NCBI GenBank assembly: GCA_022827265.1
Contig: JAJDTF010000099.1
Location: forward strand, 71,105 to 135,104
DNA length: 64,000 nt
Direction: 5' to 3'
From: Acidimicrobiia bacterium
GTDB taxonomy: Bacteria; Actinomycetota; Acidimicrobiia; Acidimicrobiales; Poriferisodalaceae
The notes under the pieces are model-generated. The model was not told the origin of the DNA. It was given only the letters and a program-made list of their open reading frames with translations, and searched no databases. Both the position numbers and the translations under genes were made by a program. This document shows, one piece after another, positions 5,512-44,363 of this stretch (position 1 is the stretch's first letter; each line of letters begins with the position of its first letter).

Positions 5512-5518
5512 GTCGACG

Positions 5519-7147
<1,629 letters not shown>

Positions 7148-8070: not shown

Positions 8071-10437
8071 GTGAGTGCGAGCGGCGCTGCCGGGGCCAAT
8101 GGCTCAAAGGACACGTCCAATTCGTTGTCCGCACACGACGGTCGCAGCGGGCTCTCGCGGGTGGTTCGCAATGCCCTGAGCGGCCGATCCCGCGAGATCG
8201 TGGCGCTGTCGCTGTTCGCGCTCGCCGTGATCTGCGCGCTGGGGCTGCTGGGCGACCGCGCGGGCGTCGTGGGCCGAGTTTTGGAGAGCGCGCTCGCAAT
8301 TCTGCTGGGCGTGTTCCGGTACGCCGTGCCGATCCTGCTCGTCTGGATCGGCGTCGCACTCGCCCGTATGACCGCTTCGGAGCGGAGCGGCCGTGCCGCC
8401 TTCGGGCTGAGCATGCTCACGGTTGCCTTCGCCGCCGCCGCACACCTGTCGGGACCAGCCGACGGCTTCGGGTCGCTGGAGGACCTGCGAGGCAGCGGGG
8501 GAGTGCTGGGTGCCGTGGTCGCCGAGCCGCTGCGTCGCTTGATCGACGACCCCGCGACCTGGGTGCTGCTGCTGCTGGTCATGCTGTTCGCGGTCATGAT
8601 CGTTGCCAACGTTGGCCTCGGTCAGGTCCTGCGATGGATATGGGCTGGTCTGTCTGCGCTGGGCCGGACGCTGAGCGGCTCGCTGTCGAAGGGTGCCCGG
8701 AGCCTGCAGCGCGTCGGCGAGGATCCCGAACCCCCGTCGTTCGGGGAAGAGCAGTACGACCTAGAGGCTGAGTCAGCAGGCCAGACTCCGGGTCTGGACC
8801 TGGGCGCCTCGGGTACCAGCGAGGCGGCATCCGACGAGGCTGTCTTCGAGCCATCGCCGCCCGAATTCGTGGAGCCGCCCAGCGACGATCCCGTCCCGAC
8901 ACCTGTGCCGGCGGCCCTCGCCTCCAGCAAGGGCACGGGAACTGGCAGCCAGCGTCCTCGCTGGAAGCTCCCAAAGAAATCGGTGCTGAAGCGCAGCGGC
9001 GCCCAGCAGTTCGACCGAGCCCAGCTGTCGGCGGGCGCTGCAGCACTGGTGGCGGCGCTGGCCAGTCACGGTGTGGAGACTCAGGTCACCGGCTGGGAGC
9101 CCGGGCCCACGGTCACGCGCTACGAGCTGAAGCTGGGCCCAGGCGTGAAGGTGTCGCGCGTCACTGCGCTTCACAAGGACATCGCCTACGCCATGGCCGC
9201 AGCCGACGTCCGGATCCTCGCGCCGATCCCAGGCCGATCGGCGATCGGCATCGAGGTCCCCAACTCCGATCGTCACTTGGTCGCGCTGGGCGACATCCTG
9301 TCCTCCAAGGCCGCCACCGAGGCCATGCACCCGCTCGAAGTGGCGATGGGCAAGGACATCTCGGGTCGTGAGGTCATGGTCAATCTGGCCACGATGCCCC
9401 ACGTGCTCATTGCCGGCGCGACCGGCGCGGGCAAGTCGTCGTGCATCAACTCGATCATCACGTCGCTGCTGATGAGGTCCAGGCCCGATGAGGTGCGGAT
9501 GATCCTCGTCGATCCCAAGCGGGTGGAGCTCGGCCAGTACGACGGGCTGCCGCATCTGCTGACTGCGGTGGTCACCGATCCGCGGAAAGCGGCCAATGCT
9601 CTCTCCTGGGCGGTGAAGGAGATGGAGCGCCGCTACGACGTGCTTTCCGAGGCGGGCTTCCGTGACATCACCGGCTACAACGCGGCCGTGCTCGACGGGG
9701 CGCTGCACAGCGACGAGGCCGAGCTGCTGGGCAACGACCAGCCCCACGAATCGATGCCCTTCATCGTGGTGGTGGTCGACGAGCTGAACGACCTCATGAT
9801 GGTGGCGGCCCGCGACGTCGAGGAGTCCATCACCCGCTTGGCCCAGATGGCCCGGGCCGTCGGCGTGCACCTTGTCGTCGCGACCCAGCGCCCGAGCGTG
9901 AACGTCATCACCGGGGTGATCAAGGCCAACATCCCCAGCCGGCTGGCATTTGCCGTGTCGAGCCTGGCAGACAGCCGGGTCATCCTCGACCAGCCCGGCG
10001 CTGAGCGGTTGGTGGGCCAGGGCGACATGCTGCTGCTGTCCGCGAACTCCAGCACGCCGCGCCGCATCCAAGGTGCGTGGGTGAGCGAATCGGAGGTCGC
10101 CCACGTAGTGGCTCACTGGCGCCGCCAAGCACCCGATGTCGAATACGTGGAAGGCGTGGAGGGCACTGACGATTCGGATGGCAGCAGCATCCTGCCGGGC
10201 GGCACCACCGGCGATGCCGATGACGACGAGCTGCTGCGCCAGGCAATGGCCATCGTGGTGGAGACCCAGCTCGGCTCGACATCCATGCTGCAGCGCAAGC
10301 TGAAAGTCGGCTTCGCCCGCGCCGGACGGCTGATGGACTTGCTCGAGCAGCGAGGCGTCGTGGGCCCCTCGCAGGGCTCCAAGGCCCGCGATGTGCTCAT
10401 GACGCCCGAGGAACTGTCGAACGCGCTGGGAGAGTGA
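8071..10437 (+). CDS. ftsK: DNA translocase FtsK
   Basis: N-terminal TM helices, a Pro/Ala-rich linker, Walker A GATGAGKSSCINS, Walker B VVVVDELNDLMM and a C-terminal gamma wHTH (STSMLQRKLKVGFARAGRLMD). Confidence 0.95.
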   Translation: MSASGAAGANGSKDTSNSLSAHDGRSGLSRVVRNALSGRSREIVALSLFALAVICALGLLGDRAGVVGRVLESALAILLGVFRYAVPILLVWIGVALARMTASERSGRAAFGLSMLTVAFAAAAHLSGPADGFGSLEDLRGSGGVLGAVVAEPLRRLIDDPATWVLLLLVMLFAVMIVANVGLGQVLRWIWAGLSALGRTLSGSLSKGARSLQRVGEDPEPPSFGEEQYDLEAESAGQTPGLDLGASGTSEAASDEAVFEPSPPEFVEPPSDDPVPTPVPAALASSKGTGTGSQRPRWKLPKKSVLKRSGAQQFDRAQLSAGAAALVAALASHGVETQVTGWEPGPTVTRYELKLGPGVKVSRVTALHKDIAYAMAAADVRILAPIPGRSAIGIEVPNSDRHLVALGDILSSKAATEAMHPLEVAMGKDISGREVMVNLATMPHVLIAGATGAGKSSCINSIITSLLMRSRPDEVRMILVDPKRVELGQYDGLPHLLTAVVTDPRKAANALSWAVKEMERRYDVLSEAGFRDITGYNAAVLDGALHSDEAELLGNDQPHESMPFIVVVVDELNDLMMVAARDVEESITRLAQMARAVGVHLVVATQRPSVNVITGVIKANIPSRLAFAVSSLADSRVILDQPGAERLVGQGDMLLLSANSSTPRRIQGAWVSESEVAHVVAHWRRQAPDVEYVEGVEGTDDSDGSSILPGGTTGDADDDELLRQAMAIVVETQLGSTSMLQRKLKVGFARAGRLMDLLEQRGVVGPSQGSKARDVLMTPEELSNALGE

Positions 10438-10460
10438 CGGCGAGCGGCTCCGCTCGCCGC
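10408..10460. repeat. direct repeat copy 1 (ftsK 3' end plus terminator hairpin)
   Basis: 53 bp, 49/53 identical to 12283..12335. It covers the last 9 ftsK codons, the stop codon and the hairpin. Confidence 0.9.
10439..10458. terminator. GC-rich hairpin immediately after the ftsK stop (8-bp stem ggcgagcg/cgctcgcc, loop gctc)
   Basis: Perfect 8-bp stem starting 2 nt after the TGA. There is no U-tract, which is common in high-GC actinobacteria. Confidence 0.5.
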
Positions 10461-12282: not shown

Positions 12283-12335
12283 GAGGAACTGTCGGCCGCC
12301 CTGGGAGAGTGACGGCAAGCGGCTCCGCTCGCCGC
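12283..12335. repeat. direct repeat copy 2 (displaced relic of the ftsK 3' end)
   Basis: It reads EELSAALGE-stop, versus EELSNALGE-stop in the live ftsK end. The hairpin carries one mismatch (ggcaagcg). Confidence 0.9.
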
Positions 12336-34701: not shown

Positions 34702-34740
34702 GATTGTCGACGCAGCCTGTGCCTTGCCGACGGCGGGGAG

Positions 34741-34884
34741 CGCGTACTGCGGCGGGATCAGCCTGCCGAGTGCGCTGCAGTGGGGGTGCGGGTGCTGCGG
34801 CGGGATCAGCCTGCCGAGTGGGCTGCGGCGGAAGAGCGCGTGCTGCGGCGGGATCAGCTTGCCGCGTACGTGGCAGCGAGCGAG
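34741..34884. repeat. 48-bp x3 tandem repeat overlapping the acyl-CoA dehydrogenase stop
   Basis: ctgcggcgggatcagc recurs at 34747, 34795 and 34843. Copies A and B are about 30/33 identical over the first 33 nt. Copy C contains the live stop codon (34854-34856). Confidence 0.85.
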
Positions 34885-36080
34885 CGGGCGATGCGGTCGG
34901 TCTGGATCTCGGTGCTGCCGTCCACATAGTTAGCGATGCGCGCGCCTGCGAGGTGGTGACCCCCCGGGTGGTCGCTGCGAAGGCCCTCGGCGCCCATGGC
35001 TTGGATGCAGGCGGCGATGTCGGCCTCGGCCGTCTCGGTGGCGAACTTCTTGGCATGCGCAGCCGGCAGGATCGCTCCGCTCGCATCACCCGTGCGCAGC
35101 GAGGCGGTGACCGCTTCGATGGCGCGGGCGGTGAGCAGCTGGGCGGCTTCGAGGCGGTTCTGCACTCCGGCCAACTTCCATGCCAGTCCTTGATGGGCGA
35201 TGACGGGCTTGCCGAACGCTTCGCGCTGGGTGCCGTAGCGGACTGCGCTCGCCAGCGTGGCCTCCACCATGGCGCAGCACATGGCGGCGACGTAGGTGCG
35301 GGCACCGTTCACGCTCGACAGGGCTGCGATGAAGGCTTCCCCCGCAGGGCTGAGAAGGTCCTCGGCGGCGGCGATGTAGCCATCCAGCCGGAACCCGCCG
35401 GTGCCGATGAGGTGACCTCCGGCCAGCTCGTACGGCGGCAGCCGCTCGAAGCCGGGCTGGGTGCCGTCGATCAGGAACAACGCAATGCCTCGACCCCGGG
35501 AGCCCGGCTGCGTCTGCGCGTAGCAGAAGATGACGTCGGAGTGCGCGGCGTTGGTGATCCAGGCCTTGGCGCCGTCGAGCCGCCAGCCGCCATCGACAGG
35601 CGTCGCGGTCGTAGCGATGTTGGCGAAGTCGCTGCCGGCGCCCGGTTCGGTCAGTGCCGTGGAGCCGAACCGGCGTCCGGCCATCAGATCGGCCAGGTAC
35701 CGCTCGCGGTGGGTGTCGCTGCCCAGCCGAGCCACTCGCGCTGCGACGTTGCCGGTGTTCACCAGGCTGAAGGCGAACGGCATCGACACGGCGCTCAGCA
35801 CCTCGACGATGCGGCACTTCTGGGCGAAGCTCATCCCCAGCCCACCCAACTCGGCAGGCACCTCCATGGCGAGCAGCCCGATCGCTGAAGCGTCCTGCAG
35901 GGCCTCGGGTGCCATGCGCTTCTCGCTCTCCCAGCGGTTCACGTTCGGCGCCACGACCGTGTCGCGGAATTGGGCGACCTCGCCGACGAACGCCTCGAAT
36001 GACGCTGCGTCCATGCCTTGGGTGGATTCGCCAAGGCTCCCTGATCCAGTGTCGGCAGCGTGAGGATCGGCGGCGCTCAT
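34854..36080 (-). CDS. acyl-CoA dehydrogenase
   Basis: STALTEPGAGSDFANI, WITNA, and C-terminal GGH..AR.ANYVDGSTEIQ (catalytic Glu context). The start is set at MSAADPH (36080). Confidence 0.9.
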   Translation of the reverse strand: MSAADPHAADTGSGSLGESTQGMDAASFEAFVGEVAQFRDTVVAPNVNRWESEKRMAPEALQDASAIGLLAMEVPAELGGLGMSFAQKCRIVEVLSAVSMPFAFSLVNTGNVAARVARLGSDTHRERYLADLMAGRRFGSTALTEPGAGSDFANIATTATPVDGGWRLDGAKAWITNAAHSDVIFCYAQTQPGSRGRGIALFLIDGTQPGFERLPPYELAGGHLIGTGGFRLDGYIAAAEDLLSPAGEAFIAALSSVNGARTYVAAMCCAMVEATLASAVRYGTQREAFGKPVIAHQGLAWKLAGVQNRLEAAQLLTARAIEAVTASLRTGDASGAILPAAHAKKFATETAEADIAACIQAMGAEGLRSDHPGGHHLAGARIANYVDGSTEIQTDRIARSLAATYAAS

Positions 36081-36165: not shown

Positions 36166-36918
36166 GTGCATGCGTCAGAGCTCGGTTCCAGTGCGGGCGG
36201 GATCGAACCGCTGCGAACGAGGCTCGTGAGGTTCGAGCGCAGCCCGGAGCCAGCGGTGCTCGGCCACCTACGCTGCGAGGTCGTGGTCGGTCTGCGCTCT
36301 GTCGCTGAGGCGTTCGAAGCGGAACCCCTGTCGGCGGTGCTCAGCCAGGAGCTCGACACTCCGCATCACGGCCCGACAGCCGCCGTCGCCGCAGTGGCGC
36401 GCTCGGGAGACAGCGGCCCCGAGATGCTCTTCATCGAACGAGCCACCCGCGACGGCGACCCGTGGTCGGGCCACATGGCGTTTCCGGGCGGGCGCACCGA
36501 GCCCGACGACGACGACACGTTCGACACGGCAGTGCGCGAGAGCCGCGAAGAGATTGGCTTCGACATCACCGCGCACGCCGGCGTGCGCTGGCTCGGCCGG
36601 CTCAATGACCTCGAAGGCAACCCGCGCTGGCGCGGCGCGGCATTGCGGGTGACGCCGCACGTGTGCTGGCTCGACGGTGCACGCCCGGCACTGACGCTGA
36701 ACTACGAAGTGGCCGATGCGTTCTGGGTGCGGGTGGCAGAACTGGCCGACCCCCGACACCACATCGACTATCACTACCCGCCTCGACCCGACGAGCGCTT
36801 CCCCGGCATCGAAGTCGGCCACGGGCGGGTGATCTGGGGCATGACACTGCGGATGCTGCAAGACCTGTTCACCCGCACCGGCCACCCCCTCCCGATCCAG
36901 TTCAGCCCATCCAGCTAA
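36166..36918 (+). CDS. NUDIX hydrolase (CoA pyrophosphatase-like)
   Basis: Nudix box GGRTEPDDDDTFDTAVRESREEIGF. The start is uncertain (GTG at 36166 or later). Confidence 0.8.
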   Translation: MHASELGSSAGGIEPLRTRLVRFERSPEPAVLGHLRCEVVVGLRSVAEAFEAEPLSAVLSQELDTPHHGPTAAVAAVARSGDSGPEMLFIERATRDGDPWSGHMAFPGGRTEPDDDDTFDTAVRESREEIGFDITAHAGVRWLGRLNDLEGNPRWRGAALRVTPHVCWLDGARPALTLNYEVADAFWVRVAELADPRHHIDYHYPPRPDERFPGIEVGHGRVIWGMTLRMLQDLFTRTGHPLPIQFSPSS

Positions 36919-36935
36919 GCAAGCCCCGTCGCTGC
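36844..36935. repeat. direct repeat copy 1 (live NUDIX 3' end plus 17 nt downstream)
   Basis: About 92 bp matching 43340..43431 at a constant offset of 6496 nt, with 3-4 mismatches (including the stop, TAA vs TGA). Confidence 0.92.
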
Positions 36936-37147
36936 GGTCGTGCGTTCGGCAGTGGTGAACGGCTTGATGGCCTCGGCGCAGGCACAGCGTATGAATGCGA
37001 GTGACCTGTGGTGAGCGACGGCTGCGAGCTCATATTGGAAAACACTGAAAAATAATTCTCAGCCATGAGACCAAATGTCACATAACCGCAATCTATCTTG
37101 TAGCGTATAAACGTTCGTTTGTCACACCGGGCCGCTAGGGTGAACGC

Positions 37148-38746
37148 ATGTTCTCTCAGGTGCGGCAGGCGCTCGACTCGCTCGCAGCGGCCATCGGTGG
37201 TGTCGAGGGTGCGCCCACCGCCGATCTGCGCGAAGCGCTCGCTCTGACCAAACCGCTGCGCGTCCGGCTCGAGACGCTTGAGACCGCCGTTGCGTCGCAG
37301 ATCGCGCGGCGCGAGTGCCACGGCGATGGCGGCGCGGGTGTACTGCACCAGATCGCCGCGGTCCCGCGCTCGGACGCGGCTCGTAACGTGCGGACCGCCG
37401 CCGAGCTCGAACAGGTGCCCGAGGCCCGGTCCGCGCTGGCTGATGGCGAGATGTGCATGGCCAACGCCGCCCGTCTGGCCCGTGCCGCACGCCAGACGAG
37501 CCCCGAAGCAGTGCAGAGCGATCCCGAGCTGGTGGACTTGGCCAAGACGTTGCCGCCCGATGAGTTCGCCCAAGCATCGGCGCGCTGGGCTGCGAAACAC
37601 CAGAGCGGAGCGAGCCTCGCCGAGCAGCATCGCCGCAACCGGCGCAATCGCAACGTGCGCTTTTGGAATGGCGAGGACGGCACCGTGCAGATGCGCGGCG
37701 CGTTCGATGCCGAGATGGGCGCCCGGATCCAAACCCGCATCCGCGACGAAGCCGAACGCCTCCGCAAAACCGACCGCCGCCTGCAGCGCGCTGCCAAAGA
37801 GGCGAGCTTCGACAACTCAGACGCCCCCGCTGCAGGGCCGCACGGCACAGACGGCCCCGACGCTGAGCACATCGGCGCGGCAGGTGACGGCCCGGCAGCC
37901 GGCGCCGCGGTGCGCACTCGCGACCAGCGCATGGCTGACGCCCTCGACCGCATCCTCACCCACGCCGGCTCCGCGCCCACGGCCGCTCATGATCTTGTTT
38001 GCGGTGACACTGCTGCTGGCGAGAAGACGGGCGGCTGCACACCCACGACCAGCACAGTCCCGAACGGCATACCGCCAAGAGCTGCCGCCGCTGGCGACAA
38101 CGCGGCCGGCGACGAAGAGAAGGCGAGCGAGGCCAACTTCACGGTCACCGGCTGCGAGCACGCGGCCGGCGACAGCACGGGCTCTGTGGGTCACAAAGCC
38201 CACTCGACCCAGATCATCGTGCGAGCCGATCTCGCAGACCTGCTCGACGGCCACGGCGGCATCGGAGAGATCGCTGGCACCGGCCCGGTGCCCGCCAGCG
38301 TCATCGACCGGCTCTGCTGCAACGCCGACATCTCCGTCGTGCTGTTCGGCAAGGAACTCACACCCCTCTACGAGGCAGTCGCTGCACGAGCGCCCACCGC
38401 AGCCCAGCGCCGCGCCCTGATCGCCCGTGACGGCGCCTGCATCGGCTGCGGCGCCCCGCCCGGCGACTGCGAAGCGCACCACATCATCCCCTGGCTCTGC
38501 GGTGGCCCCACCAAGATCGACAACCTCGTGCTGGTGTGCTGGTCCTGCCACGACAAGATCCACGACCACAACTGGCAAGTCATCAAACGCAACAACCGCT
38601 ACCGGCTCATGCCGCCCGACGCGGATTCAGCGCCCAACCCCGCCAGATCCAAGAAGTCCACCCCGCGCCGCAACCCTGCGCCATCGCGCGAGGCTGCGCC
38701 GACCCGCACACTCAACCTGGCGCGCGAACCTGCCCTATTCCCATAG
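37148..38746 (+). CDS. DUF222 domain HNH endonuclease (13E12-repeat-family type)
   Basis: C-terminal HNH: CIGCGAPPGDCEAHHIIPWLCGGPTKIDNLVLVCWSCHDKIHDHNW. The N-terminal DUF222-like helical region is as in actinobacterial REP13E12 proteins. Confidence 0.9.
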   Translation: MFSQVRQALDSLAAAIGGVEGAPTADLREALALTKPLRVRLETLETAVASQIARRECHGDGGAGVLHQIAAVPRSDAARNVRTAAELEQVPEARSALADGEMCMANAARLARAARQTSPEAVQSDPELVDLAKTLPPDEFAQASARWAAKHQSGASLAEQHRRNRRNRNVRFWNGEDGTVQMRGAFDAEMGARIQTRIRDEAERLRKTDRRLQRAAKEASFDNSDAPAAGPHGTDGPDAEHIGAAGDGPAAGAAVRTRDQRMADALDRILTHAGSAPTAAHDLVCGDTAAGEKTGGCTPTTSTVPNGIPPRAAAAGDNAAGDEEKASEANFTVTGCEHAAGDSTGSVGHKAHSTQIIVRADLADLLDGHGGIGEIAGTGPVPASVIDRLCCNADISVVLFGKELTPLYEAVAARAPTAAQRRALIARDGACIGCGAPPGDCEAHHIIPWLCGGPTKIDNLVLVCWSCHDKIHDHNWQVIKRNNRYRLMPPDADSAPNPARSKKSTPRRNPAPSREAAPTRTLNLAREPALFP

Positions 38747-38813
38747 AAGCCACAGCGCCATCACGGCGGGGTGCTTCGAGACGTGGCGAGCGTGAACCGC
38801 GCGGACTTGGAAG

Positions 38814-41800
38814 TCACAGCTCGGAGATTGCACCGACACTGATTGCCGATCCCTTGTCCGTTGGGTGGACCTGAATGCCAGTGCGGATGCGTTCGCGCAA
38901 CTCTGACACGTGGCTGATGAGGCCGACGGCACGACCGCCCTCGCGCAATCGGTCCAGTTCGTCCATCGCGAGTTGCAGAGCTTCGCTGTCGAGTGTCCCG
39001 AAGCCTTCATCGACGAAGAGAACGTCGAGATGCACACCGCCCCTGCGCTGAGTAACCACATCTGCGACGCCTAGCGCCAGTGACAGCGACGCTTGAAAGG
39101 TCTCGCCACCGGAGAGCGTTGACACTTCCCGCTCTGCTCCGGTGAAAGTGTCGTGGACACGCAAACCGAGGCCGGCCTGGGCGCCACGCCGTTCGCTCTC
39201 GCGGTGCGCGATGAGCCGGTATCGGCCACCAGTCATCGAGCTGAGCCGCCGGTTGGCGAACTCGCAGATCTGCTCCAGATAAGCCGACAGCACCCACCGC
39301 TGCAGCGACACCTTCGGTGGCAGCCGTCCGCTGCAACGGTCTGCGATGGCGGACCAGCTATTGGCGTCCGCGATGGCGTCGTTGTGCTTCGCGGTCGTGT
39401 TCCGATGCTTGTCAGCCCAATCGCTGATCGCCTTATGGGCATCCGCGGCGCGAGTGTGTTGTTCCCGTGCCGAGTTGGCCCGCTGTTCGGCGCCGTCGAC
39501 TGCGGCCTGCGCCGCTTCGGTGTCCGGACGCTCGTCGGGAAGGTCCTGCATCTCCTCGGCGCCGAGATCACGCTCGGTGTCGTAGGCCTCTTGTTTGTGG
39601 CGGTCCACTCTGTCGCGAAGCGCCGCTCGCTCGGACTCGCCGCGTAGCGCTGAACGAGCCTCCGCGACCGTCGCAAAGCAGGAGTCCTCGAGCTGCGCGG
39701 CGAGCGAGTCGGCCCAGGCGCCAAGCGCAGCGTGAGCCTCGTCACGATCATGGGCAACTTGTTGCACTTGGCCGAGAGACGCCTCGACGGCCTCGACATC
39801 GGCGACAGCGACATGCGGGTCGATCTCGCCGATCTCCTCGTGGATGGCGGCCCGCAATCTGGCCGCCTCGCGATCGGCAGCGCTAGCACGCTCTACCGCA
39901 GCATTCGCAGCAGTCTCAGCCTGCTTGGCAACCTTCTTGGCTTCGGAGGCAGCGCTCTTGTGGGCCGCAACTTCTTGCTGAAGTTCCTCGACGCGCTCGC
40001 CTTGCGAAAGGGCATCCTCCAGTTCAGTGGCGGCGTTCGCTGCTTGTTCGGCTGCAGCATCTGGGCTGTCAGCTATGTCGCCGGCTCGTCCTCGTGCTTC
40101 GTCACGCAGGGACTCAATCTTCCGGAGCGCTTTTTGTGCTTGGGCCTCCGAGTCGGCGGCCGAACGGGTCTCGGCCTCTGCTGCTTCGACTTCCTCGATC
40201 CGCACGGCATCAGCGGCCGCTTCAGCTGGATTCGGGTGGTCTGTAGAACCACACACCGGGCAGGGCGTCGCCGCTTCAAGCTCGCTCGCGAGGACGGCAG
40301 CGATGCCTTCGAGATATTGCGCTCGTAGATCGAGTTCTTGCTCCCGACGATCGAGTGCTGCTCGCTTGGCGTCCCGCGCCGCTTCATCCGCATTGCGAAG
40401 TTGAGGTTCCAACGACCGAAGTTCGACCGCCGCTTCAGAACGTGCTCGCGCATGGTCGGCGGCCGCTCTCAGTGCTGGAATCTGCTCGACGGCTGACACG
40501 GCTCTACGGAGTTCCTCGTCGGCGTCGGCGCACTGCTGCTCGTGCTCGCCGGCGGCCTCCTCTTGTTCGTTCTGTATCGCGCGCTGGCGGGCCGCCAGTG
40601 TCCCTTCGGTTGCCGAGTCTGACTCGTAATCGCTAGCTCGCGTGGCGTCCTTGCCCAGCTTGTCGAGCTGGGTCCGATGGGCAGCCAGGGACCTGCTCAT
40701 CGAGGCGAGTCGATCCTGCAGCGCCGGGTCGTCGCTGCCCGGCACGGCGATCCCTTCGGGAGTGCTCAGCGCGCCGGCCCACTTCTCGTGCAGTTCGGCG
40801 TGCCGTTCCGAGAGTTTGGCGGCTTGTTGTTGCAGTTGTGTCTGGCTGCTTTGCTCGCCATCAAGCAAGGGCCGCATGACCTCGGCAGTGTTCGCGAGCT
40901 CCAATACCGCCTCATCGTTGGCGATACTGGCTGCGGCTGCGTTGAGTTCCTCACGGCGCTCAACGAGTGCCCTTCGCTGATCCCAAAGCTCGGCAATTCG
41001 CCTGGCAACCTCGTCGGCAACGCGAGCAGTCCTGAGTTGGTCTTCGGCGGATACCTCGACGGTGGCAGCTTGGCCGACGAGTGCACGGGCTTGTTCCGTG
41101 AGATCATCGAACTGAGCTTGATCGGCAGGCCAGGATTCGTCGGCCAGGTCATCTGCGACTGCGTCGACGGGTGCTTGCTGGTCCGCCTCGTCGGCCGTCG
41201 CGGCTGGTTTGCCGAGCAGATCGTCGTCCTCGGCCGTCGGGCGCAGTTCCCTCCATCTGTCAGCGGCCCGGCTGCGAAGGTCGAGGAGTTCCTGTTCGAG
41301 GTTCGCTGCCTTCTCGCGACGTTGCTTGGCTTCTTCGTCCAGCCAGTTGACGGCCGACGCGAAGATCGACGTGTCGAACAGCGTGCGCAGCAGCTTCTCG
41401 CGGTCTTCGGACTTCGACCGAAGCACCTTCTCGAATCTCCCTTGTGGAAGGAGAACGACCTGCTGGAACTGCGAAGCGGTCAGGCCGAGCAGTCGAGCGA
41501 TTTCGTCGTTGACTTCGGTCAGATTTTGAGCCACCGGCCGCCAGCCGTCGCCTGCCTGCCGTTCGAGCGTGGCCCTGGGCTGGACCTTGGTGGTGCCCTC
41601 TCCGATCCTCTTGGCGCGTTCGTGCAACGGGCTGCGACTGATGCGCCAGCGTGCTTCGTGCGCCGTGAACTCGAGTTCGACACAGGGCGACGCTTCGGGC
41701 GCTGCGTGGTCTGACCGGAGGGAGTCATGGCGACGCTCTCCGGGCACCTCGCCGAACAATGCGAAGCACAGCGCGTCGAGCAGGAAGGTCTTGCCGGCGC

Positions 41801-41912
41801 CTGTGGGACCCCAGATCAAGAAGAGTCCGTCGACGACGAGCCGGTCGAAGTCGACTTCCACATCGCCGGGGTAGGGACCCAAGGCGGAGAACGCGAGCCG
41901 GTGCGGCCTCAC
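38814..41912 (-). CDS. sbcC: exonuclease SbcC (SMC-like ATPase)
   Basis: Walker A GPTGAGKTFLLDALCFALFG, a long coiled coil with zinc hook CPVCGS, signature LSGGETF and Walker B LFVDEGFG. The GTG start overlaps the sbcD stop (GTGA). Confidence 0.92.
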   Translation of the reverse strand: MRPHRLAFSALGPYPGDVEVDFDRLVVDGLFLIWGPTGAGKTFLLDALCFALFGEVPGERRHDSLRSDHAAPEASPCVELEFTAHEARWRISRSPLHERAKRIGEGTTKVQPRATLERQAGDGWRPVAQNLTEVNDEIARLLGLTASQFQQVVLLPQGRFEKVLRSKSEDREKLLRTLFDTSIFASAVNWLDEEAKQRREKAANLEQELLDLRSRAADRWRELRPTAEDDDLLGKPAATADEADQQAPVDAVADDLADESWPADQAQFDDLTEQARALVGQAATVEVSAEDQLRTARVADEVARRIAELWDQRRALVERREELNAAAASIANDEAVLELANTAEVMRPLLDGEQSSQTQLQQQAAKLSERHAELHEKWAGALSTPEGIAVPGSDDPALQDRLASMSRSLAAHRTQLDKLGKDATRASDYESDSATEGTLAARQRAIQNEQEEAAGEHEQQCADADEELRRAVSAVEQIPALRAAADHARARSEAAVELRSLEPQLRNADEAARDAKRAALDRREQELDLRAQYLEGIAAVLASELEAATPCPVCGSTDHPNPAEAAADAVRIEEVEAAEAETRSAADSEAQAQKALRKIESLRDEARGRAGDIADSPDAAAEQAANAATELEDALSQGERVEELQQEVAAHKSAASEAKKVAKQAETAANAAVERASAADREAARLRAAIHEEIGEIDPHVAVADVEAVEASLGQVQQVAHDRDEAHAALGAWADSLAAQLEDSCFATVAEARSALRGESERAALRDRVDRHKQEAYDTERDLGAEEMQDLPDERPDTEAAQAAVDGAEQRANSAREQHTRAADAHKAISDWADKHRNTTAKHNDAIADANSWSAIADRCSGRLPPKVSLQRWVLSAYLEQICEFANRRLSSMTGGRYRLIAHRESERRGAQAGLGLRVHDTFTGAEREVSTLSGGETFQASLSLALGVADVVTQRRGGVHLDVLFVDEGFGTLDSEALQLAMDELDRLREGGRAVGLISHVSELRERIRTGIQVHPTDKGSAISVGAISEL

Positions 41913-43246
41913 GCGTCGTTCTCGCCGGTTGCCGCTTGGAGCGCGGATGCCAGCACGTCTCGCTGCGCCACCGAGGCCTTGTCCCCGTGCTGGTCTTCCC
42001 AGAATCGCAGCGCGAGTTCGAGCGGGTGTTTCGAGTTCTCCACTGCTTCAGCCACGTCACCACCGCCGGGCGCCCTGCGACCGTCGGGAACGTGCTCGAG
42101 CACGGCGGCGTGCGGGAAGCGCCGTTGGATCTGCGCCATCGCCTGCAGGGGCAATTCGGAATCGGTGAGCCGCACCCGGACCCGGGCCCCCTCGGCGCCG
42201 GCGAACTCGGCGCTGTTGAGCAGGCTCTCGAGCCGGCCCCGCAACGTACGCAGCGGGCGGCCGACGTCCAGCGGGACAACCTCAGTGCTGCACTGGCCCT
42301 CGGCGTCCATCTCGATGATGCGCACCGACTTCGTGTCGTTCTCCTCGGAGAACGAGTAGGGGAGCGGGCTGCCGGAGTACGCGACGCGGCCATCGTCGAA
42401 GGCTTGGCTGCGGTGCAGGTGGCCCAGTGCCACATAGTCGAACCCGCCGAACACGTCTAGGCCCACCCTGTCGATGTTGCCGATGCTGAGATCGCGTTCG
42501 GAATCCGACGGCGTTGCCCCGTCGACGAAGGTGTGCGCCACCACGACGGTGCGAGTCGGACCACCGGCGGCCGCCGCCCGGCGGATCAGCGTTGTGGCGA
42601 GTTCCGTGACGTCGTGGTGGCTGGCGCGTCGAGGGCTGGCGCGTCGGGTTGTCTCGGCCTCGGGAGACTGCCGCCCGGCTAGCAGGGCGATGGCCGGGTG
42701 GTGGCGATCGGCTCGGCGAGACCCTGCTGTCCCTGCTCTTTCTGCCGCCTTTGCCTCTGTTTCCGCAGCCTCTGCTTGCGCGGCGTCTGCCGCCTCAGCG
42801 TCTCCGCCGAGTTGGTCGAGGTGCTGGCGGGCCAGCAACGGCTCGAGGTAGGGCACCGGAAAGACGCTGACGGATGGCCCGCCGTCGTCGGGATCGAGTT
42901 TCAGCGGTTCGACGCACCGGGAGATATCGCCGCGCACGACGACACCGGCCTGTTCGAGCACCCGATCTGCGACGGCGACGCGAGACGGTGAATCGTGATT
43001 GCCGACGATCGCGACAACCTGCGCGCCGGTCCCGTGCAGCCGCACCAGCGCCTCATCGAAGAGTTGTACGGCATCGGTTGGCGGGATCGCCCGGTCGTAC
43101 AAATCGCCCGCGATCACGACTAGGTCGATTCTCTCGCTATTGGCCAGTTCGACAACCCGGCCGATCACCTCTTCCTGCTCGCGCATGAGCGACGCGCCGT
43201 GGAAGCTGCGACCCAGGTGCCAATCGGACGTGTGCAGGATGCGCAC
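41909..43246 (-). CDS. sbcD: exonuclease SbcD (Mre11-type phosphoesterase)
   Basis: VRILHTSDWHLG (GTG start at 43246), VIAGDLYDR and GNHDS. The track ORF's 45-aa N-terminal extension is antisense read-through of the NUDIX relic. Confidence 0.9.
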   Translation of the reverse strand: MRILHTSDWHLGRSFHGASLMREQEEVIGRVVELANSERIDLVVIAGDLYDRAIPPTDAVQLFDEALVRLHGTGAQVVAIVGNHDSPSRVAVADRVLEQAGVVVRGDISRCVEPLKLDPDDGGPSVSVFPVPYLEPLLARQHLDQLGGDAEAADAAQAEAAETEAKAAERAGTAGSRRADRHHPAIALLAGRQSPEAETTRRASPRRASHHDVTELATTLIRRAAAAGGPTRTVVVAHTFVDGATPSDSERDLSIGNIDRVGLDVFGGFDYVALGHLHRSQAFDDGRVAYSGSPLPYSFSEENDTKSVRIIEMDAEGQCSTEVVPLDVGRPLRTLRGRLESLLNSAEFAGAEGARVRVRLTDSELPLQAMAQIQRRFPHAAVLEHVPDGRRAPGGGDVAEAVENSKHPLELALRFWEDQHGDKASVAQRDVLASALQAATGENDA

Positions 43247-43339
43247 GGCCGCAGAGTACCGAGGGGCTGTGACGGGGAACCCGGAGATTTGAGACTCTTC
43301 GGCGTCGAGATGATGCACGACCCGATGTTCCGAGGTACG

Positions 43340-43431
43340 ACGCTGCGGATGCTGCAAGACCTGTTCACCCGCGCCGGCCACCCCCTCCCGATCCAGTTCA
43401 GCCCATCCAGCTGAGCAAGCCCCGTCGCTGC
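43340..43431. repeat. direct repeat copy 2 (displaced relic of the NUDIX 3' end)
   Basis: It encodes TLRMLQDLFTRAGHPLPIQFSPSS-stop with no upstream NUDIX body. The 71-aa track ORF 43199..43414 is this relic. Confidence 0.92.
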
Positions 43432-43508
43432 AGCCATGCGTTCGTTATGGTCCCCACACTGCGGCTGGCGCGACCCATGCCTGCCCGTTGGTGTCAAGGG
43501 GATGAGAC

Positions 43509-44363
43509 ATGAGCGCTGATTTCGAGTTGGAGCTGCTGAGTTCGGGGTGGGGCCTGATCGAGGGTCCTCGGGTGGATGAGCACGACAACCTCTATTTCTC
43601 CGATGTGCCCAACGGTGGCGTGCGTCGGCGCAAGCCTGATGGCGAGATCGAAGTGGTGGTGCCGAAGCGGCGCGGCGTGGGCGGCATGGTGCTGCACGCC
43701 GACGGCGGCGTGGTGGTGAGCGGTCGCAACATCCAGCACGTCACCGACGCCGGCTCGGAAGTGCTGTTCGCTCCCGATGTTGCCGGATTCAACGACATGC
43801 ACACCGACTCGCTGGGACGCGTGTACGTCGGCTCGCTGCGGCGTAACCCGTTCGACCTGTCGTCACCGGATGAGGCTGGCGAGCTGTATCGCATCAACCT
43901 CGACGGCACTGCCGACGAGGTGTATGGCGACGTGCAGCTCACAAACGGCATCGGCTTCTCGCCCGACGGATCGCGGCTGTATCACTCCGACAGCATCCCG
44001 GGCCGGGTGTGGGTGTCTGATGTCGACGGCGATTCGGTGACCAACCGCCGGGAGTTCGTGCGAGAAGGCAAGGTGCCTGACGGCCTTGCCGTGGATGTCG
44101 AAGGCGGCGTGTGGGTCGCGCTGGCCGAAGGCGCACGCGTGCAGCGCTACACGCCCGACGGCGAACCCGATCTCGCCGTGCCGGTTCCCGACCAGTTCGT
44201 CACCAGCGTCTGCTTCGGCGGCGCCGACATGCGCGACCTCTACATCGTGACTGCCGGGGCGTCGGACGGCGGCGGCACGTCGGGCGGCGGGTGCATCTTC
44301 CGCACTCGTGCTCCCGTTGCCGGCGTCCCGACCCCGCTGGCTCGGGTGCGCCTCGGCGGATGA
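43509..44363 (+). CDS. SMP-30/gluconolactonase/LRE family protein
   Basis: EGPRVDEHDNLYFSD, FNDMHTDSLGRVYVG, TNGIGFSPDGSRLYHSD, PDGLAVDVEGGVWVA and TSVCFGG. Confidence 0.85.
   Translation: MSADFELELLSSGWGLIEGPRVDEHDNLYFSDVPNGGVRRRKPDGEIEVVVPKRRGVGGMVLHADGGVVVSGRNIQHVTDAGSEVLFAPDVAGFNDMHTDSLGRVYVGSLRRNPFDLSSPDEAGELYRINLDGTADEVYGDVQLTNGIGFSPDGSRLYHSDSIPGRVWVSDVDGDSVTNRREFVREGKVPDGLAVDVEGGVWVALAEGARVQRYTPDGEPDLAVPVPDQFVTSVCFGGADMRDLYIVTAGASDGGGTSGGGCIFRTRAPVAGVPTPLARVRLGG

Follow-up and report, generated by a model that had tools for sequence, protein, structure and literature searches.

Genes and direct repeats at the NUDIX-SMP30 locus

The window analyzed here is a stretch of 64,000 nt from a metagenome-assembled genome (MAG) of Candidatus Poriferisodalis (hereafter G000), which is a short-read assembly of 3.8 Mb in 163 contigs and was assigned to this genus by homologues of its NUDIX gene. 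Ca. Poriferisodalis comprises sponge-associated Acidimicrobiia that are represented mostly by MAGs. At the locus of interest, the 3′ end of a NUDIX hydrolase gene occurs twice, as direct repeats on both sides of a block with a DUF222-HNH endonuclease gene and the genes sbcC and sbcD. The NUDIX gene (CoA-pyrophosphatase-like; 36166–36918, plus strand) was identified by Pfam NUDIX (5.7e-13) and a weak NCBIfam match to CoA pyrophosphatase, and ends with a TAA stop codon. Its true start is probably located ~75 nt downstream of that of the longest open reading frame (ORF), as the alignments with homologues begin near residue 26. Immediately to the right of the block is a gene of the SMP30/gluconolactonase family (43509–44363, plus strand; Pfam SGL, 3e-54), and in alleles lacking the block it lies directly 3′ of NUDIX. 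The gene order of a leftward acyl-CoA dehydrogenase gene (ACAD) followed by rightward NUDIX, SMP30 and ABH genes is conserved in the genus and beyond, and NUDIX adjoins ACAD and SMP30 by synteny across the genus and in the outgroups. The gap between NUDIX and SMP30 is 52 nt in the outgroup L108, and a monooxygenase gene is placed between the two in more distant marine relatives.

An original prediction, made from the letters of the window, had described direct repeats of about 90 bp at a constant offset of 6496 nt, with the first copy being the live NUDIX end (TAA) and the second ending in TGA without a gene body. Alignment, ORF and Pfam reading bore out both statements, and the repeat turned out to be longer. 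Its core (36846–36948 versus 43342–43444) is identical at 97 of 103 positions at this same constant offset, with mismatches at 36846, 36877, 36917, 36936, 36938, and 36940. A weaker in-register match extends 42 nt further 5′ (36804–36845 versus 43300–43341) with 26 of 42 identical positions, against a mean of 11.4 (sd 2.9, maximum 25) at ~20,000 other offsets. The repeat search reported 36804–36948 and 43300–43444 as a single 145-nt family, and identity past both ends drops to the background of 21–32%.

Copy 1 (36804–36948, plus strand) consists of the live NUDIX 3′ end (codons ~213–250), the stop codon, and 30 nt ending in GCGTTCG. Copy 2 (43300–43444, plus strand) is an orphan with a 5′ tier of 62% identity (43300–43341) and a 3′ tier of 94% identity (43342–43444). 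It reads ...TLRMLQDLFTRAGHPLPIQFSPSS up to a TGA stop codon at 43412–43414 and has no gene body, which shows it to be a non-coding relic of the 3′ end of NUDIX. As sbcD starts at the GTG at 43246, this relic lies within the 262 nt that separate the divergent genes sbcD and SMP30. Neither a sigma-70 promoter nor an intrinsic terminator was found in either copy. When the whole 3.8-Mb assembly was searched, the repeat sequence was present at these two places only. It is therefore not a dispersed multi-copy element, an outcome that had been named at the outset as one that would speak against an insertion.

The first gene of the block encodes a 532-aa DUF222+HNH endonuclease of the 13E12/REP13E12 type (37148–38746, plus strand), with Pfam matches to HNH (1.9e-10) and DUF222 (5.5e-10) that are both above the curated cut-offs. 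The DUF222 match (PF02720, 39.5 bits against a cut-off of 24.4, also above the cut-off in the genome scan) covers only the C-terminal part of the model, positions 225–306, and the HNH match (PF01844) is located at residues 431–473. As read from the translation, the HNH motif is intact (CEAHHIIPW...DNLVLVC..CHDKIHDH), with the catalytic His-Asn-His and the Cys pairs in place (CEAHHIIPW...DNLVLVCWSCHDKIHDH). On the opposite strand, sbcC (38814–41912, minus strand) encodes a Rad50-like ATPase of 1032 aa with Pfam AAA_23 and SbcC_Walker_B domains. It is matched end to end by the NCBIfam sbcC models, which span SbcC residues 1–1016 but score below the equivalog cut-offs. The Mre11-like nuclease gene sbcD (445 aa; 41909–43246, minus strand) carries Pfam Metallophos and SbcD_C domains, matches TIGR00619 with 186.5 bits (cut-off 77.65), and starts with the GTG at 43246 (N-terminus MRILHTSDWHLG). 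The two genes overlap by 4 nt (41909–41912) in the operon order sbcD-sbcC, and the pair has the characteristics of the SbcCD type.

SbcC is only 53% identical in amino acids to the proteins of G007 and G020, although the flanking genes are 88–93% identical in DNA and ACAD is 97% identical in amino acids. The divergence of the middle of SbcC suggests allele replacement or diversifying selection. The coiled-coil part (39583–41328) is hypervariable and could not be aligned at the DNA level between such species, with protein identities of 53–90%. In G009 (L042 4025–6082), an AlkB-like 2OG-Fe(II) dioxygenase gene, as read from its motifs, and an unannotated gene of 471 aa are located between the HNH gene and sbcC. 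The AlkB-like gene would add another DNA-repair-type gene to the block in that genome. Apart from these two genes, nothing beyond the content of the G000 block was found at this site in the relatives.

Considering that the HNH, SbcC, and SbcD genes fill the block, there is no room for an integrase, and no tyrosine or serine recombinase was found inside or beside the block in G000 or in ~20 filled genomes. The gene content that had been read from the window, HNH/DUF222 and sbcCD without an integrase, was thus confirmed by Pfam, NCBIfam, and the ORFs. No transposase domain was present in the block, nor were there terminal inverted repeats, as no inverted match was found between the block ends. 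Moreover, the duplication is 103–145 nt long, compared with 2–15 nt for an insertion sequence or transposon, so the block does not have the makeup of a transposon. Its GC content is 66.3% versus 66.2% for the window, and the GC3 of the HNH gene and sbcD is similar to that of the flanking genes, with a lower value of 0.70 for sbcC. The only compositional outlier in the block is a 104-nt AT-rich leader before the HNH gene (37010–37113), which has 43% GC against a background of 66%. An equivalent stretch precedes the HNH orthologues in relatives and a paralogue on contig C119 of G000. The block was also considered as an anti-phage defence system and rejected, since PADLOC gave no match for the HNH gene and only generic SMC/ABC-type matches for SbcC.

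Predicted damage-inducible promoters of the block

Both transcription units of the block start with a promoter resembling the mycobacterial RecA-NDp motif. For the HNH gene, this promoter (37120–37147, plus strand) reads TGTCACACC-N7-TAGGGT-N6-ATG, and a leaderless mRNA is predicted. For sbcD, it reads cGTCACAGC-N7-TACTCT-N6-GTG (43253–43274, minus strand) and is likewise leaderless. The sbcD variant is kept in all genomes with sbcDC at this site, and at an alternative sbcD locus of clade 4 it is clearest in G010. In G000, the form TGTCACACC-N7-TAnnnT-N6/7-start stands directly before recA, a recQ-like helicase gene, ligA, and at least four HNH-family genes.

The mycobacterial RecA-NDp motif is bound by PafBC, and the 13E12 genes of Mycobacterium tuberculosis carry this motif and are damage-induced (PMC3381160, PMC6789036). 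From the resemblance of the promoters, we predict that the HNH gene and sbcDC are DNA-damage-induced genes of a host regulon, arranged as two convergent transcription units. The leaderless motif appears to be the Acidimicrobiia version of the RecA-NDp/PafBC regulon, which would include recA, recQ, ligA, sbcDC, and the HNH family. The HNH promoter was also considered for an SOS (LexA) box, but this idea was rejected, as only a GTTCG half-site and no convincing box was seen. The variant TGTCACACC-N7-TAcgGT-N6/7-start was also observed before two genes read as DNA methylases and a gene for an McrB-like ATPase, and the motif sites in G000 include C76:144663, C107:2121, and C141:31091.

Empty and filled alleles in Ca. 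Poriferisodalis

Genomes of the genus, 24 of them in the sbcD search, were compared at this site and assigned to four clades by flanking-gene trees, with L108 as an outgroup. The set includes G024, a closed chromosome of 3.4 Mb, and L107, a metagenome contig of clade 2. L107 was the one contig of the genus recovered in a metagenome scan with SMP30, the other matches being distant relatives usable as outgroups only. The NUDIX|SMP30 site was found in three states: empty (state A), with the HNH gene only (state B), and with HNH, sbcC, and sbcD (state C). Empty alleles occur in all four clades, in L107, and in the outgroup. They align with window positions 36191–36948 and then directly with 43326–44356, corresponding to one repeat copy, and copy 2 with its downstream DNA is collinear with the empty sites. 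In the flanking-gene trees, the empty alleles L062, L063, and L065 are nested within the otherwise sbcDC-bearing clade of the window.

These results show that the block is a genuine insertion/deletion polymorphism among Ca. Poriferisodalis species. It is an old accessory block (DUF222-HNH rightward, sbcC-sbcD leftward) between NUDIX and SMP30, with the repeat at its two borders. A search of related genomes for an empty site with a single repeat copy had been suggested in the original prediction; such sites thus exist, close relatives included.

No sbcD match was obtained in 10 of the 24 genomes; the contig of one of them, G005, ends inside sbcC, leaving nine genomes without a sign of the gene. 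In three clade-4 genomes, sbcD is found at a different locus with no HNH gene nearby. Judging from these distributions, sbcDC is accessory in the genus. This agrees with part of the earlier suggestion that the normally chromosomal sbcCD rides on a degenerate element; the element itself is unlikely, as the block has no integrase and a host-like GC content. In G011 (L096 9930–11160, L078), the native locus is heavily disrupted, with fragments of a CoA-transferase gene and of ACAD fused to ~130 nt of the NUDIX 3′ end, and a HicB-like gene and a repeat protein gene (DARFEAQNRQI units) are placed between these fragments and SMP30. An intact NUDIX gene of the clade-4 type is located 2.7 Mb away in the same genome.

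Junctions, relics and intergenic haplotypes

The left border of the block is at 36948|36949. Its junction is identical in every filled genome, with the NUDIX stop codon, ~30 nt, GCGTTCG, and then G(C)AGTG.... Empty alleles continue from GCGTTCG with TTATGG... or TTAGTG..., running into TTAKKGTCCSCACAC, so that the sequence around the breakpoint is …GCGTTCG|TTATGGTCC… or …GCGTTCG|TTATGGTCCCCACAC…. The breakpoint (GTTCG|TTA) is inside a conserved 20-nt motif, GTTCGTTAKKGTCCSCACAC, which precedes SMP30 in all genomes and is unique in G000 (43440–43459, plus strand). A similar stretch, GTTCGTT-TGTCACAC, is part of the promoter of the HNH gene itself. Immediately inside the left junction, the DNA can be aligned between clades 1 and 4, and HNH orthologues stand at the same site in all four clades. 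Since the left junction and the adjacent DNA are common to all clades, the HNH gene was inserted in one old event rather than by repeated invasion. A recent site-specific insertion with attL/attR-like repeats, as originally proposed, is not supported.

The right side of the block differs among genomes. Local alignment against shuffles revealed a significant second NUDIX end in G000 and G024 only (z = 71 and 40), and all other filled genomes remained below z = 3; the short similarities noticed by eye after the stop codon in clades 2 and 4 also failed this test and count as hints at most. The relics of G000 and G024 agree in their left boundary and in the decayed 5′ tier. Identity of the G000 relic falls into two tiers (26/42, then 97/103), while the G024 relic, 84% identical to copy 1 of G000, is graded, with identity rising from ~71% in the first 48 nucleotides of the core to ~91% in the remaining 55 (counted by eye). 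In other state-C genomes, the spacer between sbcD and SMP30 is ~71 nt shorter (~81 gapped alignment columns). With the register fixed by the conserved sbcD promoter and the G000 repeat, the 57 nt upstream of sbcD in these genomes were identical to NUDIX at 25/57 and 27/57 positions, against an estimated ~17 expected. There is thus weak evidence that all state-C genomes may descend from one founding duplication of ~150 nt.

Two other ideas about the relic were rejected. A distant donor of the decayed 5′ tier was considered, but the segment FPGIEVGHGRVIWG is invariant in clades 1–3 and no outgroup resembles the LFGVEMMHDPMFRG of the relic, which was read as plain decay. A 'CTG' common to the relic boundaries was also dismissed, as the NUDIX boundary is a change of identity inside continuous homology and not a joint.

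The DNA between GTTCG and the SMP30 start falls into two haplotypes. Type I (TTATGGTCCCCACACTGCGGC...GGGGATGAGACATG) occurs in the clade-1 empty alleles L062, L063, and L065 and in the relic-bearing G000 and G024, and a type-I-like form is present in the empty alleles L073, L076, and L082 of clades 3 and 4. Type II is found in the eight other state-C and six state-B genomes with a readable junction, together with three empty alleles. According to this distribution, G000 resembles an empty allele rightwards of 43342 and a filled allele leftwards of it. The well-kept part of the relic is continuous with the empty-type haplotype, a sign that filled alleles have recombined with empty ones. Two changes in copy 1 are found in G000 alone (36846 A and the TAA stop codon); copy 2 has the ancestral base at both positions, which argues against its having been converted recently from copy 1. 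In G016, the left flank groups with clade 2 and the right flank with clade 4 in the flanking-gene trees, showing that alleles at the NUDIX|SMP30 site recombine between species. The low identity of SbcC (53%) between G000 and G007, set against 97% for their ACAD proteins, is a further sign of such recombination.

A patchwork of this kind could also arise in silico, if the 3′ tier and the type I spacer of a co-occurring empty strain had been joined to a filled contig. G000 is a MAG of 163 contigs, empty and filled alleles coexist among very close relatives, and copy 2 with its spacer differs from the empty L063 at only ~7 of 172 positions (by eye). However, the same architecture, left boundary, and type I spacer are present in the closed chromosome of G024, the decayed 5′ tier is common to G000 and G024 and absent from any empty allele, and the six differences between the copies let an assembler tell them apart. 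We therefore regard an assembly artefact as extremely unlikely.

The repeat might instead have formed in place, either by a tandem duplication over the NUDIX stop codon between whose units the block later landed, or with the 3′ tier being kept for signals of SMP30. Tandem duplications spanning stop codons are frequent in these genomes (three units of 48 nt at ACAD, 17-nt units at NUDIX, and 88-nt units at the HNH 3′ end in clade 4), and the conserved motif 5′ of SMP30 overlaps the repeat end. Landing exactly at a tandem joint would nevertheless require a coincidence. As to selection on the relic, filled genomes of type II are without most of it yet keep SMP30, the relic of G024 is decaying, and no promoter-like or terminator-like site was found in it. 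An origin in place is accordingly rather improbable.

HNH genes and repeat pairs across the genomes

G000 contains 10 HNH-family loci and its relatives 4–22 matches per genome, and the family is rare outside the genus. The paralogues share only the promoter and coding sequence and have no common ends; identity is 70–74% or less, with ~74% for the closest paralogue, whose flanks are unrelated. The original prediction had asked whether other DUF222-HNH copies are flanked by duplicated gene ends as well. Direct repeats bracket 2 of the 10 loci in G000, this one and one on contig C15, and the other eight have no flanking repeat.

The C15 pair is a direct repeat of 150 nt with 79% identity (5516–5665 and 9350–9498), located just upstream of a Cas_GSU0053 CRISPR-associated gene. 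Its left copy is the 3′ end of a membrane ORF of 192 aa, and its right copy, 3.7 kb downstream, is a frameshifted relic. Between the two copies are an HNH gene and a coiled-coil membrane ORF, both of which are partly duplicated in tandem. An empty site of C15 could not be delimited, because the neighboring CRISPR-Cas gene is rare and present in only two relatives. A further HNH paralogue lies in a hotspot on C119 (L104 1647–8574), where up468 and dn272 are ~40–50 nt apart in eight relatives and 4.7 kb is inserted in G000. This insert carries two minus-strand ORFs, a relic of the up468 3′ end (92 nt, 95.7% identity; L104 5028–5119), a 174-aa ORF, and the HNH paralogue. At the same spot, G002 has a PIN (VapC-like) gene, and other relatives carry different subsets.

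Repeat pairs are not confined to HNH loci. With thresholds of at least 80 nt, at least 85% identity, and a spacing of 0.4–10 kb, 27 direct-repeat pairs were found in the 3.8 Mb of G000. By automatic classification, at least 6 of the 27 look like a gene 3′ end and its displaced relic. This count is a rough lower bound, and the classification is noisy, having missed the NUDIX case, because long spurious ORFs abound at 66% GC. One example without an HNH gene is at ftsK, whose 3′ end with a hairpin (10408–10460) is repeated in a 53-nt version 1875 nt downstream (12283–12335), as alignment confirmed. The 1.8-kb insert between the two has no recognizable domain, and a P450 gene follows.

In a case-control comparison of the closed relatives G001, G004, and G015, 40 HNH-centered regions were set against 40 control regions displaced by 75 kb or more. 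No enrichment of repeat pairs around HNH genes was seen: any pair was present in 9/40 versus 8/40 regions, an adjacent pair in 6 versus 4, and a bracketing pair in 1 versus 2. About 20% of 14.5-kb regions in these three relatives hold such a pair. Displaced gene ends are thus a general feature of these genomes, and HNH genes are frequent residents of accessory hotspots.

These counts bear on whether the HNH protein itself made the duplication. A damage-induced nuclease could cut or nick near GTTCG|TTA of empty alleles, for which GCGTTCG|TTAKKGTCCSCACAC is a candidate target, and repair off a filled allele would copy the HNH gene with its neighbors, while staggered nicks or faulty synthesis-dependent repair would duplicate 100–150 nt of target. 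The HNH motif is intact and the gene is kept at this site, alleles with and without it coexist in every clade, and the breakpoint lies in the conserved motif that resembles the HNH promoter. The family is multi-copy, three of the 10 HNH loci of G000 lie in or beside relic-bracketed inserts, and its M. tuberculosis members are damage-induced and hotspots of gene conversion and inversion (PMC3381160, PMC13061034, PMC13157036).

On the other side, the paralogues have no common ends, the repeats are not enriched at HNH genes, and relic-bracketed inserts without HNH exist, as at ftsK. Classical homing leaves no target duplication, and the HNH gene here derives from one old insertion and not from repeated invasions. 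Homing or duplication driven by the HNH protein, which had been offered as one explanation of the locus, is therefore unsupported, and we consider it quite unlikely. A broader proposal is very unlikely in our judgment: DUF222-HNH nucleases, as selfish or semi-domesticated enzymes induced by damage, would break the DNA next to their own gene, immediately after the stop codon of a conserved neighbor. If it were true, it would explain gain, exchange, and loss of cargo (sbcDC, AlkB-like, toxin-antitoxin) together with 3′ end duplications of 90–150 nt. It would amount to homing-like mobility without an integrase or transposase, and would give a function to the long-unexplained REP13E12 family.

Proposed history of the block

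The explanation that we find best, and somewhat more probable than all others together, is an old insertion with target duplication, followed by decay of the relic and its partial renewal by recombination with empty alleles. The block would have entered long ago, in an event that duplicated a target of ~150 nt from about NUDIX codon 210 to 30 nt past the stop codon. The founding route may have been a single crossover of a circularized fragment, or one-sided homology combined with an illegitimate join; neither an integrase nor HNH action would be required. The relic would then have decayed, such that most lineages are now without a significant one. Homologous recombination with an empty NUDIX-SMP30 allele would have replaced the right-hand portion of the relic in the lineage leading to G000 and G024, the left crossover falling within the relic and the right one within SMP30 or past it. 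A left crossover at this place would explain the sharp step from 62% to 94% identity at 43342. The 6.5-kb block could now be deleted between the two copies, through RecA or by annealing, and such a deletion would regenerate exactly the empty alleles of the closest relatives. The two-tier identity and the empty-type haplotype seem to fit general recombination of alleles better than homing.

Several points weigh against this history. The direction is unreadable from present-day sequences, and the empty alleles could be ancestral or derived. A left crossover inside an already diverged relic is inefficient for RecA, and the homology of the sbcD-upstream DNA of type II genomes to NUDIX is marginal (z about 2.5–3). 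Strain co-assembly in the short-read MAG could contribute to the near-perfect 3′ tier of G000, although the architecture itself is real, as it is present in the closed genome G024. Three HNH loci of G000 (C76, C15, and C119) are in or beside relic-bracketed inserts, compared with ~0.5 estimated by chance, although the comparison in three other genomes was negative. Finally, the same structure would result if a site-specific integrase had acted here and had since been lost.

This last point deserves consideration on its own. A recombinase, since lost or acting in trans, may have inserted a circle with a NUDIX-end-like attP, in which case the locus would be a degenerate integrative element and the repeats attL and attR. 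The gene 3′ end is restored at one border and displaced at the other, empty sites exist in relatives, and second and third loci of G000 have displaced 3′ ends of core genes beside accessory genes, and ftsK has a 53-nt version. In contrast, the block is completely filled by three genes, no recombinase was found in or beside it in ~20 filled genomes, and its composition is host-like. Its cargo consists of DNA-repair genes of the host regulon with the promoter type of recA, the insertion is older than the genus radiation, and the relic is two-tiered instead of a uniform att core. An integrative element is consequently an unlikely source of the block.

Comparison with known systems

Old insertion and renewal by recombination place the locus among structures that are already known: it looks like an accessory block that general recombination has shaped and that has direct repeats derived from its target at both borders, not a new type of mobile element. 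Campbell-type or homology-facilitated illegitimate integration is similar in that it duplicates a shared segment on either side of the insert, requires no dedicated enzyme, and can be reversed by recombination between the copies. Such integration and repeat-mediated deletion would also fit the many similar repeat pairs in G000. These processes are known mainly from laboratory transformation work, whereas the case here is inferred from comparative sequence, with a founding event too old to reconstruct. Integrative elements and islands in gene 3′ ends share the direct repeats at both borders, the gene left intact at one of them, and the empty sites in relatives. Unlike them, the block has neither integrase nor excisionase and no conjugation or replication genes; it is host-like in composition, carries damage-regulon cargo, and goes back to an old insertion with two identity tiers instead of one att core.

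Free-standing homing endonuclease genes, such as seg and mob of phage T4, are comparable in that an HNH gene is present or absent at a fixed site and the neighboring DNA differs between alleles. They differ from the present case, in which the target is duplicated, a single old insertion was followed by recombination and loss, and repeats are not enriched at HNH genes. REP13E12/13E12 of M. tuberculosis has in common with the HNH gene the DUF222 + HNH domains, multiple copies in variable number, and a RecA-NDp-like promoter. The M. tuberculosis genes are hotspots of gene conversion and inversion (PMC13061034, PMC13157036), and the locus here is likewise in a region of clear allele recombination. 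The present gene belongs to another class, the Acidimicrobiia, and is physically linked to sbcDC; there is no DNA repeat unit of ~1.3 kb, only the promoter and coding sequence being shared by the paralogues. No prophage or integrase was found near the block, and no sign of a phiRv1-type attachment site was seen, though no search was aimed at that site.

The locus shows in good resolution how uncultured sponge symbionts keep, exchange, and lose an accessory DNA-repair block at a single site, and the displaced gene end is a record of this history. In this genus, sbcDC is an accessory, movable unit with hypervariable alleles beside a 13E12-type HNH gene. The RecA-NDp-like regulon, if correctly predicted, would mean that 13E12 genes are tied to the damage response in more than one actinobacterial class. 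The empty site is also a defined candidate target for specific DNA cutting by HNH proteins, a question that to our knowledge has stood for the REP13E12 family since it was described.

Tandem duplications were observed at several stop codons of this region. The ACAD stop codon is spanned by three tandem units of 48 nt (34738–34896). In clade 4, tandem units of 17 nt cover the NUDIX stop codon, and the HNH 3′ end occurs in two or three tandem copies of ~88 nt; a short array was also seen in G023. Duplications that span stop codons seem to be common in this lineage.

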